Source of the DNA: Deltaproteobacteria bacterium
GTDB taxonomy: Bacteria > Myxococcota_A > Polyangia > Fen-1088
Reading direction: 5' to 3'
NCBI GenBank assembly: GCA_033763315.1
Contig: JANRKS010000027.1
Location: 1-64,000 of the forward strand
Length of the DNA: 64,000 nucleotides
Shown here: positions 112 through 5,462 of the stretch, piece after piece
Numbering within the stretch: position 1 is the stretch's first letter
How the letters are laid out: each line of letters opens with the position of its first letter
Translations under genes and position numbers: made by a program
The notes under the pieces: model-generated
What the model was told of the DNA's origin: nothing
The model's input: the letters and a program-made list of their open reading frames with translations, nothing else
Database searches by the model: none

Positions 112-129
112 CGAGTCGCGGACCTATCT

Positions 130-256
130 GGCTAACGTGTGGAGTTCAGCTGCAAAGCTCAGCTGCGTGCACAACCCCAATGGTGCTGGAAACACCAAAG
201 CGTGTCTAGGTTTTAGTTGACGCCTAAGCTTTGACAGCTGAAACGATCGGTTGTGC
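130..256 (-). repeat. attC site
   Basis: Minus strand: R'' GCACAAC, 5 nt, L'' GTTTCAGC (extra base) ... L' GCTGAAC, 7 nt, R' GTTAGCC. The stem continues (TGTCAAAGC/GCTTTGCA). R'' is complementary to the GTTGTGC at 701-695 that opens this cassette. Confidence 0.88.
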
Positions 257-694
257 AGCGGGGCTACAACCAGCGGCGCGATGAGGTTCGATACGCAGCC
301 GAGCACCGACCCCGGTGGCCGGGTTGCACAGGGCCATCGCCGTTGCGCGCAGCGATACCCTGTTACCGCGTGCCCCTTCTTGTTGTTGAGTTTGCAGCAT
401 CGTTGGCACGTGCGGCCCGCTGACGCCCGCATACTGAGCTCGAACGTGCACTGGTGCATGCCCGGTGGCGAGTCAACACCAAGGGCGTTTGTTGGCCCGC
501 ATGCGTAGCCACTTCACCGCCCCTGCACCGGTACCGAGCTCGCGCGTCCTGCACGTCTCGTTAGACCTGTGAGCCCGCCTTGCGCAAGAGCGCGTTCGCA
601 GCTGGGTGGTTCTGCCAGAGTCACTGACACAGACGGCGCGATTTGTTGCGCGGCCAGCTCATGCAAGCTTGTTCGATGACTGAGCCGCGTGTCT

Positions 695-825
695 GCACAA
701 CGTGTGTGGCTTAAGCTGCGGCGCCCATTGAGGCCCCAAGACCGCATTGTCGCTCGCAGACCGATAGCATGTCTAGGTTCAAAGTGACCTCCGAGGCGCC
801 GTCTGCCTTCAAGCCAGAGTTATGC
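695..825 (-). repeat. attC site
   Basis: Minus strand: GCATAAC, 5 nt, CTTGAAGG ... GCTTAAG, 8 nt, GTTGTGC, with an inner GGCGCC stem. Lies just after the stop of 851..1258. Shares an identical 23-mer (770-792 = 1337-1359) with the next attC. Confidence 0.85.
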
Positions 826-850
826 GGCGGCCTCAGTGTCGAGGTGAACG

Positions 851-1258
851 TCAAAGATGCTTTCGGCGTTTGACGTAGTCGCTGACGACGTTCTCTTTGA
901 ACTCCTGGAACGTCTTGAACAACGGGCCTCCCGCACCTTGCACCGCTCCGGTCTCTGCGTCGACTCCTACTCGCTTGTTTGACGGTTGGCCTGCATATCC
1001 AAGCCTGAGTTCGAACATCCATGTCTTACCCTGCAATACGGGAGGATTCGGCGCTCCGCAGCCGGCTACGTATTCGTTCATGTATGCCTGCGCAATCCGT
1101 TCAGCCTCCGCCGCGTCGATGCCATCAGCGGGATAGACGGTCGCCAGCTCTGACTCCAGCTTATCGACTTCAGCTCGAAGATGCTCGGGCATGCATTGCG
1201 AACACACGAGAAGTGCGCTCATGCAGACCTGCAACATTTGCGATCGCTGTTTGCTCAT
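851..1258 (-). CDS. Integron cassette protein, putatively exported; PepSY-like pattern (AEAERIA ... W.FEL ... VGVDAETG)
   Basis: ORF fills the space between core site GTTATCC (1270-1264) and attC 695-825. Hydrophobic Cys-containing N-terminus. Confidence 0.75.
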   Translation of the reverse strand: MSKQRSQMLQVCMSALLVCSQCMPEHLRAEVDKLESELATVYPADGIDAAEAERIAQAYMNEYVAGCGAPNPPVLQGKTWMFELRLGYAGQPSNKRVGVDAETGAVQGAGGPLFKTFQEFKENVVSDYVKRRKHL

Positions 1259-1263
1259 CGTCC

Positions 1264-1390
1264 GGATAACGTGAAAAATTCAGCTGCAAAGCCCCCTGAG
1301 GCTTAAGGCCAGATTGTCGCCCGCATGCCGACCCACTGTCTAGGTTCAAAGTGACCTCCATGCTTTGTCAGCTGCAATGATCGGTTAGCC
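1264..1390 (-). repeat. attC site
   Basis: Minus strand: R'' GGCTAAC, CGATC, L'' ATTGCAGC ... L' GCTGAAT, 7 nt, R' GTTATCC. R'' is the exact complement of GTTAGCC at 1784-1778. Confidence 0.9.
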
Positions 1391-1412
1391 AGCGGCAAAG
1401 CAGCAACTCACT

Positions 1413-1777: not shown

Positions 1778-1861
1778 GGCTAACTTATAGGTTCTCTCGA
1801 GTTCGATGATGCCACGAAGCACAAACGAACGTAATGACATTCGAGAGAACCGTCGTTGAAC
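1778..1861 (-). repeat. Atypical attC-like site (or attI region)
   Basis: Minus strand: GTTCAAC, 5 nt, TTCTCTCGA ... TCGAGAGAA, 7 nt, GTTAGCC. Same 5/7 spacer geometry as the sibling attCs, but a perfect stem with no extrahelical base and unrelated inner sequence. Confidence 0.5.
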
Positions 1862-2129
1862 TTAGCCGCTGGCCAGTTGCGTTGCGACTATGGGAGATTC
1901 AAGCGCGGTGGTGCGGCCGAACAAGCGATCTGCGCAAGGAGTGGATGCGGCGGTAGCCGTACGAAGCCCGCTGGCCGTATTGGCTGAGGTTTACAGGGCC
2001 AGCGGATTTCGTGGCGACGCTCACGAAAATGGCGACACAGGGATGTCGCGAGCGAACGGGTGCATTGAAGCTCAATGGATCCAAAAGTTGGTCGCGAGTT
2101 TTGTGGTTTTGGTTTGCGCCCATGGCGAT

Positions 2130-3302
2130 TCAGGAGGTGTTTGGCGTTCGAGGTTGTCCTTTGCGGTCAGTGAGGGCTTGTGCTCGACACGAGTCGCATA
2201 GATCAACGTCGATGCCAGTAAGATCTTCAAGAAGCTCTTTCCAAGAGCGGGTGGGCGCTGCTAAACGGCCAGACACTTCGGCGTCGTTTGATGACGCTGA
2301 ACTCAAAATGCCTCGCGCAGTGGCCATGCTACCGTTCAGATTCGCAGATGCCGCCAGCCCATAATGCCGTATTTTGACGAATCCTCTGGGCAGGACATGA
2401 CAAAGGAATCGTCTGATGAATTCGATGGGATCCAAAGAAGCCACCTTGCCGTCTTTCGTGCTGAAGACCACGGCTTCTTTGGTAATGGAGCGGATCCTGT
2501 AGTTTGAAATGCCAACGCGGTGAGTGTACTGGCCCAAATACCGGAAGATTGCTTTGGGCCCCGCGAAGGGCTTTTTCGCATACACGCCCCACTCAACAGA
2601 GAAAAGCTCCCGCTTAAGCTCGCGAAGGTCTTCAAGTTCTAAAGGAATTTCGTCTGCCATCACGAGCTTTGTCAGGCCATCCAAAAACTTCCCCCGAAAC
2701 AGTCGCGACAAAAGCTTTACGGGCAATAGATATTGCCCCGATGACGAGACCCAAGCGGTGGAGTCAAGTGACAAGCCACCGGCGCTCACGATGCAATGCA
2801 CGTGCGGGTGAAAACGCAGGTCTCTTGTCCATGTGTGAAGGACAGACGTGATGGCCAGCTGGCATTTCAGTTTCGTTTGAGCGGCGTCAAGCAGGGTCTT
2901 ACTGCTGCTTGAAAACAGCAGTGCGTACATCGACTCTGGATGAAGCTTGCAAAACCTCCGCAGCTGCTGCGGAAGCGTGAAAACAACATGGAAGTATTTC
3001 ACAGGAAGGATCTTCGCTTCGCGCGCCTGAATCCACCGAGCCTGCGCGAGACCTTGACACTTTGGACAATGCCGGTTGCGACACGAATTGTAAGAAACGG
3101 TTGTCTTGCGGCAAGCGCGACAAGTTTCACCATGGCCACCAAGCGCAGGCGTACGGCACTGCACAATGGCGTTGATGGCACGCCTTTGAACATGAGTGGT
3201 GCGATGCGATCCCAGATAGCCGCTGCCATGGCGAGCAAAAATTTCCGCCATGTCCCAACGAGGGCGTGCGCCACCGCTCCCAATGCCTGGGTGCTGATGC
3301 AC
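2130..3302 (-). CDS. IS91-family (Y2 HUH) transposase
   Basis: Zn-binding YNSCRNRHCPKCQ, YFHVVFTLP, HUH motif HPHVH, YxxxY motif YLGQY, KIRHYG. Confidence 0.95.
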   Translation of the reverse strand: MHQHPGIGSGGARPRWDMAEIFARHGSGYLGSHRTTHVQRRAINAIVQCRTPALGGHGETCRACRKTTVSYNSCRNRHCPKCQGLAQARWIQAREAKILPVKYFHVVFTLPQQLRRFCKLHPESMYALLFSSSSKTLLDAAQTKLKCQLAITSVLHTWTRDLRFHPHVHCIVSAGGLSLDSTAWVSSSGQYLLPVKLLSRLFRGKFLDGLTKLVMADEIPLELEDLRELKRELFSVEWGVYAKKPFAGPKAIFRYLGQYTHRVGISNYRIRSITKEAVVFSTKDGKVASLDPIEFIRRFLCHVLPRGFVKIRHYGLAASANLNGSMATARGILSSASSNDAEVSGRLAAPTRSWKELLEDLTGIDVDLCDSCRAQALTDRKGQPRTPNTS

Positions 3303-3319
3303 GATGACTCCTCGTGTCG

Positions 3320-4168
3320 TTAACGCTTCGCTTTTGTGGTTACATCAAGAGGGCTCGTCGTGCGGCTTAGGTGTCGTGTCGACACATGTACGTATCGAGC
3401 GGTAGTAGATGGCGAACTGTGCCCCAGCAGCACTTGAATTATCCGCAGATCCGCACCGTCATCGAGGAGATGGGTGGCAAATCCGTGGCGCAACGAATGC
3501 AAGGTGAAGTGCCTATGCGGCAGTGTTGTCGAGACGACGGTCTTGAGCACCTTGCGAACGGCATCAATGCCGATGTGTGTGCCTTCAGCCGCGCCGGGAA
3601 ACAAGAAAGGTCCTGAGGGACGCTCCTGTCGCCAATATGCACGAAGCACCTGTAACGAACGCTGACTTAGAATGACCGTGCGATCCCTGCGAAACTTTCC
3701 GTCGCGGATGCGTATCACCATACTTTTGCTGTCGACGTCTTGCGGCGTAAGTCGAAGCGCTTCGTTTATGCGAAGCCCTGAGCCGTAAGCGACCATGAGA
3801 ATGGCCCTGTATTTCACTGATTTTATGGCAGCGAACAGCTGTTCAAGCTCATCGCGCGTAGGGACGGCGGGAAGCTTGTGCTCGACTCGCGGAGGACGAA
3901 GTTCTGCGCCAACACTTGGTTTACGCAAGGCAAACCGATACATGAACTTGATCGCTGACAGCGCTTGAGCTTGGCTCGAACGAGAGACCTTACGATCTCT
4001 AGCAAGGTGCAGCATGTAGGCTTCGATGTCATCGTCCCCCATGTCCGCGGGGTTTCGCCGGTGAAAAACAACGAAGCTTCGGCAGTGCATGAGATACGAC
4101 TTGCGCGTTGTCGGGGCGATTCGCCGAATCTCAAACTGCTCTTCCAATCGATCACGTATCCAACCCAT
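3320..4168 (-). CDS. Tyrosine recombinase (IS91-associated type with N-terminal SAM-like domain)
   Basis: YGSGLRINE, HSLRH, LLGH, TARY catalytic set intact. Lacks the IntI-specific insertion. Start placed at ATG 4168 behind AGGACGAGG (ORF track begins at 4249). Confidence 0.93.
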   Translation of the reverse strand: MGWIRDRLEEQFEIRRIAPTTRKSYLMHCRSFVVFHRRNPADMGDDDIEAYMLHLARDRKVSRSSQAQALSAIKFMYRFALRKPSVGAELRPPRVEHKLPAVPTRDELEQLFAAIKSVKYRAILMVAYGSGLRINEALRLTPQDVDSKSMVIRIRDGKFRRDRTVILSQRSLQVLRAYWRQERPSGPFLFPGAAEGTHIGIDAVRKVLKTVVSTTLPHRHFTLHSLRHGFATHLLDDGADLRIIQVLLGHSSPSTTARYVHVSTRHLSRTTSPLDVTTKAKR

Positions 4169-4282
4169 GGCCTCGTCCTTTCTGTGGTAGAAAGAACAAG
4201 ATCTCGGCGGATTTACCTCAACACCTTCTCCCAAGGTGCAAGCGGCCACCGGTAGCCAACAGACCGCCGCGCCAGCGGCTTA

Positions 4283-4340
4283 GTTCAACGTGAATTGTAC
4301 CGTTCAAGATATCCGATCTTCTCGACTTTTGGCAGGGCGC
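4283..4340 (-). other. Candidate attI region 3' of intI
   Basis: Minus-strand CAC-GTTGAAC core about 50 nt past the intI stop. The same CAC precedes R' in all three attCs. A second TTGAAC lies 19 nt upstream. Confidence 0.45.
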
Positions 4341-5462
4341 CTATTTCTTCGGTCGCATCGGGACGCCATGTTTTCCCTCAGCCAAAAGTGTCGATAAACC
4401 AATATCTCGAACCGTAAGTGCGGATAAGCCAATATTGGTGTTCGAGTTAACTTGATTTATTCGAGCAGACGTATCCAAGGGACTCGATACGCCCATGGGG
4501 CCGCGGTTGAGGACGTGGGTGTAGATCATGGTGGTGGTGACGTCGCTGTGGCCAAGCAGCTCTTGGATCGTTCGAATGTCTTGACCAGCTTCCAGCAAGT
4601 GCGTGGCAAAGGAATGCCGTAGCGAGTGAGCCGTAGCGGGCTTCGTGATGCCGGACTCAAGTACCGCTGCACGAATAGTTCGCTGCACGCCAGATTCGTG
4701 AAGGTGGTGCCTTCGCATCTGACCTGACTCCTGATGAAGATAAAAGCCTTTGGCAGGAAAGATCCATTGCCATGCCCATTGCTTTGCGGCCCCGGGCATC
4801 TTTCTGGACAGAGCGTTGGGCAATGCCACAAACCCCGCACCTTGGGCTAGATCCCGTTCGTGCTGTTGCCTGCAGCGAAAGATGTGCCTGGCGAGGTCGT
4901 TTGCCACAAAATCGGGCAGCATGGTGTGGCGATCCTTGGCGCCTTTGCCACGGCGAACGGTGATCGTGCGACGCTCAAAGTCCACGTCTTTAATTCTCAA
5001 AGTTAAGGCCTCCATCAAGCGCAGGCCCGATCCATAGATCAAAGCTGCCACCAGCCACGTTGGCTCACGCAACCTGTTCAAGACTGCAAAGACTTCGTTG
5101 CGGGTAAGCACACAGGGCAGCTTCGTGGGGCCCTTGGCGCGCTGGACACCATCAAGCCAATCAAGGTCCCGCCCGAGGACGTGCTGGTAGAGAAACAACA
5201 GGGCCGCAAGCGCCTGACTCTGCGTCGACGCACTCACCTTCTTATCGATGGCGAGATGGCTCAAGAACTGAGTGACCTCAGCTTCACCCATTTCTTTGGG
5301 ATGGCGTCGGTTGTGGTAGGCCACGAACCGGCGAATCCAGTGGCAGTAGGCCTTCTTCGTGCGGTCGCTGTAGTGGCGAACGGTTAAGACCATGCGCGCT
5401 TGTTCCAGCAGCGTTCGGGGCTTGGATGGTGAATAGGCAGACGCCGTCGTTTTTGATTCCAC
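4341..5462 (-). CDS. intI: Integron integrase
   Basis: HYSDRTKKAYCHWIRRF, YGSGLR, IntI-specific insertion (VALPNALSRK...WAWQWIFP...RRHHLHE), HSLRHSFATHLL, LGHSDVTTTMIYTHV, SPLD. Start uncertain (GTG 5462 chosen; frame open to 5552). Confidence 0.96.
   Translation of the reverse strand: MESKTTASAYSPSKPRTLLEQARMVLTVRHYSDRTKKAYCHWIRRFVAYHNRRHPKEMGEAEVTQFLSHLAIDKKVSASTQSQALAALLFLYQHVLGRDLDWLDGVQRAKGPTKLPCVLTRNEVFAVLNRLREPTWLVAALIYGSGLRLMEALTLRIKDVDFERRTITVRRGKGAKDRHTMLPDFVANDLARHIFRCRQQHERDLAQGAGFVALPNALSRKMPGAAKQWAWQWIFPAKGFYLHQESGQMRRHHLHESGVQRTIRAAVLESGITKPATAHSLRHSFATHLLEAGQDIRTIQELLGHSDVTTTMIYTHVLNRGPMGVSSPLDTSARINQVNSNTNIGLSALTVRDIGLSTLLAEGKHGVPMRPKK

Follow-up and report, generated by a model that had tools for sequence, protein, structure and literature searches.

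An IS91-like element with an integrase gene and an attC-like terminal hairpin at the first cassette position of a deltaproteobacterial integron

Insertion sequences of the IS91 family, including IS91, IS801 and IS1294, have transposases with zinc, HUH and two-tyrosine motifs, make no target duplication and carry a palindrome at the transposase-distal end. Their ends are of the oriIS and terIS type, without long terminal inverted repeats. Some members form a subgroup in which a 'phage integrase' gene lies upstream of the transposase gene (ISfinder names such as ISAzo26 and ISShvi3). Here we describe an element with the same two-gene order from a Deltaproteobacteria bacterium (genome G000, GenBank assembly GCA_033763315.1). 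The element lies in the first 64 kb of contig C27 (JANRKS010000027.1), a stretch of 64,000 nucleotides hereafter called the window, and encodes a tyrosine recombinase, Int, followed by an IS91-family Y2/HUH transposase (gene tnp). It stands in a chromosomal integron between the attI region and the next cassette. Like the IS91 family it has the zinc, HUH and two-tyrosine motifs, the distal palindrome and no target duplication, and unlike that family it has an upstream recombinase resembling the integron integrase IntI, terminal inverted repeats of 15-19 bp and, beyond the repeat, a hairpin, and it targets integron core sites rather than a bare tetranucleotide.

Several other mobile elements are associated with integrons. 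The relevant part of PMC8876359 describes ISCR1 in complex class 1 integrons as an IS91-like transposase physically linked to integrons; ISCR1 differs from the present element in lying at the 3' conserved segment, not at attI, and in having neither a recombinase nor an attC-like site. The IS1111-attC group of IS110 and the group IIC-attC introns invade integron arrays at attC (PMC9229058), using other enzymes (a DEDD transposase and a reverse transcriptase, respectively), and they interrupt the attC without forming a cassette-shaped unit. A 2022 paper reports an IS91-like element beside an attC and, in the part that bears on it, treats the attC as a neighbour, whereas here the hairpin is part of the element, and is so across phyla. 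A full-text literature search returned no description of this architecture, of the ends or hairpin of the subgroup, or of attI targeting, and the ISfinder entries may record the repeats. With integron cassettes and their attC sites the element shares the order R'', L'', L', R', unequal spacers, a G/TT crossover (the slash marks the point of exchange), a TTRRRY at the opening that is the complement of its R'', and a position after attI. It differs from them in having two recombinase genes of its own, in lacking single-base extrahelical bases, in occurring without integrons and in having one inverted copy.

The mobile unit spans positions 1784-4288 on the minus strand (2505 bp, from G/TT to G/TT) and reads TTGAAC, int, tnp, hairpin and a closing G. 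In minus-strand order, intI is followed by the attI region, the crossover ending in GTACAATTCAC/G, the element and then ordinary cassettes, intI and the cassettes being co-directional. The element sits exactly at the G/TT crossover, and target duplication is absent at both unit junctions. An earlier, sequence-only reading of this locus had described a two-gene module bounded by 19-bp inverted repeats with GTTGAAC and GTTCAAC as their outermost 7 nt. Both points hold: 18 of 19 positions are complementary when 1855-1873 is read directly against 4271-4289, and a repeat search returns arms of 20 nt (1854-1873 and 4271-4290) that are 95% complementary. By our estimate such a repeat would arise by chance at about 58/4^19 per position pair, or about 0.004 pairs in 6 kb. 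These 19-bp repeats, which ends of the oriIS and terIS type do not have, are conserved in relatives.

The Int-side repeat (4271-4289) reads GTTGAAC-TAAGCCGCTGGC on the minus strand, the motif GTTGAAC-nAAGCCGC being kept in relatives, and its outer 7 nt would act as R' in a circular form. The transposase-side repeat (1855-1873) reads GCCAGCGGCTAA-GTTCAAC, and this GTTCAAC is R''. An R' core, G/TTAGCC, lies at 1778-1784 (minus strand): the G at 1784 closes the element, and TTAGCC opens the next cassette, which has its own R'', GGCTAAC, at 1384-1390. With GTTCAAC and G/TTAGCC in place and GTTGAAC at the start, the arrangement follows the site rule of integron cassettes. As to the tetranucleotide rule of IS91 set out in the portion of PMC13181058 on target choice, GTTC or GTCC is found here inside R'' and not in the flank, and the junctions show no duplication.

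The attC-like hairpin (1785-1854, minus strand) lies outside the transposase-side repeat and consists of a GAC spacer, a stem formed by GGTTCTCTCGA and TCGAGAGAACC (1841-1851 and 1790-1800), a 40-nt inner part and a TATAA spacer. The stem is a perfect 11 bp, followed by a 10-nt bulge. Folded in situ, the hairpin has an energy of -21.5 kcal/mol (z -2.87), and 1 of 200 shuffled sequences was as stable. Among related elements a perfect stem of at least 7 bp starts no more than 9 nt from the repeat in 33 of 44, compared with 55 of 880 shuffles, and the stem sequences vary between clades while the pairing is retained.

The ordinary cassettes of the window (122-1400, minus strand) have attC sites at 122-265, 695-835 and 1258-1400, and the array runs off the contig start. 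As had been proposed from the sequence, their opening GTT core is complementary to their own R'', exactly for two (GTTAGCC with GGCTAAC and GTTGTGC with GCACAAC) and with one mismatch for the third (GTTATCC with GCATAAC). The CAC reported ahead of the core is likewise present before G/TT at attI and in the three array attCs; the element's own hairpin has TATAA there, not CAC. A hairpin does continue the distal end as predicted, but its spacers agree with those of the array attCs only in part, measuring 3 and 5 nt at maximal pairing and becoming 5 and 7 nt only with two outer G-C pairs open, so that what is common to the array attCs (5 and 7 nt) is the 2-nt asymmetry. Extrahelical bases in the L stem are a feature of attC sites. 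They are absent from the first 11 bp of the element's L stem, whereas the host attCs carry an extra G and A on the L'' arm. The spacer pair CCTATTR and TATAA tracks element lineage and not the host attC type.

Comparison with other copies shows that the segment 1785-1854 travels with the element. A copy from the same genus (genome G081, contig C1), 77% identical, begins at AAC-TTATAGG, where its contig starts, and thus includes the hairpin, and it ends at GTTCAAC; a second G081 contig terminates within the opposite end of another copy, whose flank is different. A soil-metagenome contig of 20.8 kb (X5) aligns with 1782-1941 and 2008-4289 at about 90% and no longer resembles the window past both ends. 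The limits of 1784-4288, hairpin included, that the sequence-only reading had suggested are supported by the G081 copy and by X5. Public sequencing runs were examined as Logan contigs, the best-matching run containing 0.32 of the words; contigs of run X1 stop at 4289 or pass into other flanks, one of which is the attI-like site that adjoins uvrA in G000. Two near-identical copies in G070 diverge directly after the GTT of R' (GTTGGGC in one, GTTAGCC in the other). Because the G081 copy, the X5 and X1 contigs and the G070 pair show the hairpin moving with the element, the hairpin, as judged from these alignments, belongs to the unit, and the unit is 1784-4288, cut at G/TT on both sides.

Int (3320-4168, minus strand) has 282 aa counted from an ATG, the longest open reading frame (ORF) being 3320-4249, and matches the Pfam families Phage_integrase and SAM_4. 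In an alignment, its six catalytic residues R133, K158, H224, R227, H250 and Y259 are invariant in 10 relatives. The top NCBIfam match of Int is the integron integrase model TIGR02249, at 186 bits, which is below the cut-off of 265 and split in two stretches because Int is without the IntI-specific insertion, as the alignment shows. The lack of single-base bulges in the hairpin fits a recombinase without this insertion. Int and IntI are mutual best paralogues in G000 (137 bits, compared with 75-105 bits to two Xer proteins), and the solved structures that Int matches best are those of an archaeal XerA-like protein, at 207 bits, and of IntI4, at 197 bits. Recombinases borne by IS91 elements are grouped with IntI in an 'Integron-like' subgroup, and the missing insertion is noted, in the part of the preprint 10.1101/542381 that treats them. 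The transposase (2130-3251, minus strand) has 373 aa from an ATG, with the longest ORF reaching 3302. It matches Y2_Tnp (4e-49) and Zn_Tnp_IS91 (5e-32) in Pfam, passes the NCBIfam model transpos_IS91 (379 bits, cut-off 125) and has the motifs HPHVH (HUH) and RYLGQYTHR (two-tyrosine). Both enzymes look intact from their predicted sequences. Between the tnp stop and the repeat is a non-coding stretch (1874-2129), and relatives have a non-coding stretch at the same position. Its sole ORF (1890-2201, plus strand, opposite to the genes; 103 aa) has no Pfam match and is probably not a gene.

A search with an Int profile in 89 genomes of the order found 32 members of the Int family, all at 238 bits or more, in 23 genomes, with a clear gap to Xer and IntI proteins at 168 bits or less. 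G000 has one copy only. Every copy with readable ends has the order flank/TTGRAC-nAAGCsGC, int, tnp, GCGGCTnn-GTYCAAC, 1-5 nt, hairpin, 5-8 nt, crossover. Copies in other genera of the window's bacterial family keep this plan at 45-50% protein identity, and protein searches found it kept on plasmids of Sinorhizobium, Bradyrhizobium, Rhizobium and Paraburkholderia; a search of plasmids at the DNA level gave only short matches of 68-77%, inside the genes. In Sinorhizobium medicae two copies stand in tandem, and the sequence where they meet, hairpin-GCTCTGCA/TTGGAC, is the boundary of the unit to be expected from a circle. In a scan of one genome per species we examined 80 of 597 candidate loci with Int and a Y2 transposase. 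About 60 have Int and then the transposase, and the family motif is in the terminal repeat of 29 of 52 scorable loci, mainly from Acidobacteriota and Alphaproteobacteria. An intI-type match was found within 4 kb on either side in none of the 80 loci from other phyla. The order flank/TTGRAC-nAAsCCGC, int, tnp, GCGGsTTn-GTYCAAC-spacer-hairpin-spacer/ recurs across the family, plasmid and other-phyla sets. By this comparison the resemblance to a cassette characterises the whole Int-plus-Y2 (Int+Y2) subgroup of IS91 elements and is not a chance match to core sites.

The clade nearest the window (clade A, 5' end GTTGAACTAAGC) abuts attI or attI-like sequence with the same junction in nine of nine copies. 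Six lie directly after intI (the window, G076, G037, G070 contig C13, G059 and G074), and three are at attI-like sites elsewhere (G081 contigs C1 and C236, G070 contig C15). All intI-linked copies are confined to one bacterial family. The first 70 nt or so of the element are nearly identical in G070 and G076 while their attI regions differ widely, and presence of the element varies within the genus, G080 and G081 having ordinary first cassettes; we therefore conclude that these are repeated separate insertions and not inheritance. Co-carriage of the attI-like sequence by read-through was considered and rejected, the attI-like flanks of the near-identical G070 copies being alike only at their ends. 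Clade B is found at the R' G/TT of ordinary attCs in G046, in G084 and in G035, where it has three copies, and probably also in G037. The clade B copy of G041 has the opposite orientation and sits precisely at the R'' of cassette 3. In G038, clade C is represented by four copies, each 2668 nt long and each in a different setting; this genome is 95% complete, and no intI match was found in it at E of 1e-60 or lower. Two of the flanks of these copies resemble tRNA-Leu.

Some copies have unusual surroundings. The G038 copy on contig C37 (L154) stands between two inverted 3' halves of tRNA-Leu that are 84% alike, and ARAGORN finds no intact tRNA there; we suspect an insertion into tRNA-Leu-like sequence and then inversion between two copies. 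In G033, two identical copies (L059 on contig C9 and L064 on C7) have swapped flanks with TTATG...CATAA palindromes, which fits inversion by recombination between copies. A cassette in G084 (L160, 2442-3025) opens with the first 24 nt of the element at 100% identity, continues into unrelated sequence and has an ordinary attC at its end, and may be a footprint or hybrid from recombination at G/TT.

The comparisons show the architecture and boundaries of these elements, their family-wide conservation, their targeting pattern and their presence without intI. In a circular or single-stranded form, the two 19-bp repeats would pair as an R box (GTTCAAC with GTTGAAC) and the adjacent hairpin would form the L box, with unequal unpaired spacers between them and exchange at G/TT, fixed 5-8 nt 3' of the hairpin. 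The Y2/HUH transposase would make a single-stranded circle, and Int, which is IntI-like, would join the folded site to a target G/TT core. We assign the supply of the folding strand to the HUH enzyme because IS91 itself inserts as single-stranded circles, according to the section of PMC13181058 on the inserted form. We infer both which enzyme cuts where and the single-stranded intermediate. Preferred targets in the window's bacterial family would be attI or attI-like sites for the window's clade and attC cores for the sister clade, and it would be owing to this preference for integron sites that the element looks like, and is placed like, a first cassette. The CTX phage presents a similar case, in which a folded single-stranded hairpin site is recombined with double-stranded chromosomal dif by XerC and XerD; there the recombinases are host-encoded and no HUH enzyme takes part, and we draw the comparison as an analogy only.

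On this basis we regard the element as probably self-mobilising, with its own enzymes using the attC-like folded site and targeting integron core sites, and with help from IntI possible and not needed. We judge self-mobilisation to be the best explanation because copies occur in intI-free settings and one insertion is inverted, taken together with the features of Int and the transposase. Two alternatives had been put forward in the sequence-only reading, mobilisation by IntI as a cassette and a recombinase of the element's own that uses integron-like core sites and targets attI, and the intI-free settings and inverted copy favour the latter.

Several points weigh against self-mobilisation. The clade closest to the window was found only at attI-type sites, and an attI is ordinarily recognised by the cognate IntI, which inserts cassettes there. 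The R'' and R' boxes of copies in the window's bacterial family fit RYYYAAC and GTTRRRY, and every insertion in direct orientation is what IntI would also produce. The actor at G/TT may be Int or the Y2 transposase. HUH relaxases likewise have a hairpin at their site and cut 5-8 nt 3' of it. Neither a circle junction nor an empty site was present in the Logan contigs of public runs, which are contigs and not reads. A tree of 31 recombinases, limited to Int, IntI and two Xer proteins and including one wrongly cut ORF (row L074) on a very long branch, could not resolve the sister relation of Int, IntI and Xer, and no conclusion is drawn from it. Perfect stems of at least 7 bp in the 5' flanks were not significant as a target rule (8 of 40, compared with 93 of 800 shuffles), and we do not claim a hairpin-target rule.

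The element could instead be a true integron cassette that the host IntI excises and inserts by using the hairpin as an attC, its own enzymes being cargo or a second route. The opening TTGAAC is complementary to its own R'', the boundary is at G/TT, the element is first after attI in six genomes and follows ordinary attCs in cassette orientation in G035, G046 and G084, and the R''-to-R' distance of 84 nt falls within the size range of attC sites. We nevertheless consider mobilisation as a cassette rather unlikely, though a serious alternative, given that the same site is kept in relatives where intI was not found (within 4 kb of the loci from other phyla, in G038, and with the Sinorhizobium copies), that the L stem is without single-base extrahelical bases and that the CCTATTR and TATAA spacers go with the element lineage instead of the host attC type. 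The copy inverted at R'' in G041 and the broken state of three of the six intI genes beside the element (G059, G037 and G074) also argue against it.

A classical IS91 rolling circle, in which the hairpin is oriIS, the Y2 transposase alone cuts and joins, and Int resolves multimers or helps to choose targets, appears improbable to us, more so than the cassette. It would agree with the subterminal oriIS palindromes, single-stranded circles and choice of GTTC, CTTG or GTCC described for relatives in the pertinent part of PMC13181058, with the GTTC in R'' here and GTCC in other clades, and with a junction fixed 5-8 nt 3' of the hairpin. IS91 does not, however, have terminal repeats of 15-19 bp or such highly specific targets, Int is kept with all catalytic residues in every clade, and the tetranucleotide, described for IS91 in the flank, here lies within the element. 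That an ordinary insertion sequence landed once beside an attC or attI and that the arrangement was then inherited is very hard to credit: the single copy in G000 and the restriction of intI-linked copies to one bacterial family would suit such a relic, but the hairpin accompanies the element into unrelated flanks, not all genomes of the genus have the element in this place, the first cassettes of G080 and G081 being ordinary ones, and between G070 and G076 the adjoining attI has diverged far more than the element has.

The integron that houses the element has features of its own. The window's intI (4341-5411, minus strand) scores 441 bits with TIGR02249 (cut-off 265) and has a 48-aa tail through attI (4341-4478), the stop codon that usually follows SPLD being missing from this ORF. 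Its relatives in G081, G076, G070 and G059 stop directly after SPLD, and the tail in G080 is shorter. The attI region (4290-4478, minus strand) extends from the end of IntI homology to the crossover, and no part of the IntI homologues of G080 and G081 aligns below window position 4473. The distance of about 50 nt from the intI stop to the element, given in the sequence-only reading, is therefore right for the stop of the ORF (4341) and not for IntI homology, which ends at about 4473-4478, so that the attI region spans about 185 nt. In G080 (GTACAATTAAC/GTTGGAC), G081 and G041 the first cassettes are ordinary ones and open at the same attI nucleotide. The attI region can be drawn as a long imperfect hairpin, but its z is only -1.70, with 7 of 200 shuffles as stable, and we do not claim it as a structure. 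Genes for intI are common in the window's bacterial family, with 63 matches in 49 of the 89 genomes. Those directly upstream of the element are broken in G059 contig C139 (by TAG), G037 contig C21 (by TGA) and G074 contig C2 (in two frames).

Attachment sites without intI are also found elsewhere in G000. Sequences like attI occur on contig C16 (97107-111098, L048), C1 (310712-310878) and C4 (155-297). With uvrA beside it, the C16 copy stands at the head of an array whose 11 attCs are of the same type as in the window, and further attCs of this type lie at the ends of contigs C40, C32, C39 and C1; the C16 and contig-end arrays may have no intI of their own and be served in trans. The same sequence of about 100 nt, ending in GTCTGGCCAAC/, follows the attI-like sites of C16 (L048) and C1 (L049), and the two arrays therefore have the same first cassette. 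The interior of the C16 array (L048, 6163-7054) contains an IS3-type integrase core fragment and a group II intron maturase domain.

The origin of integrons is an open question, as is the evolution of structured, single-stranded attC recombination from ordinary Xer-type recombination. The Int+Y2 family is a widespread transposon family with a recombinase near IntI, an attachment site of R box, spacer and L box, and insertion at the G/TT used by cassettes. It offers a concrete and testable intermediate, and the pairing with an HUH enzyme suggests a source of the single strand. Integron annotation will mis-call such elements as cassettes or as an 'IS next to attC'. We put forward as a tentative possibility that Int+Y2 elements live freely as 'selfish cassettes' and form a sister group to the integron recombination module, each being composed of an IntI-like recombinase, an attC-like folded site and a strand-supplying HUH enzyme, and that integrons would have been domesticated from one, or the reverse. 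In the window's bacterial family the element would then parasitise attI, taking the best-expressed cassette slot just after intI, and in this first position it may affect expression of the array.

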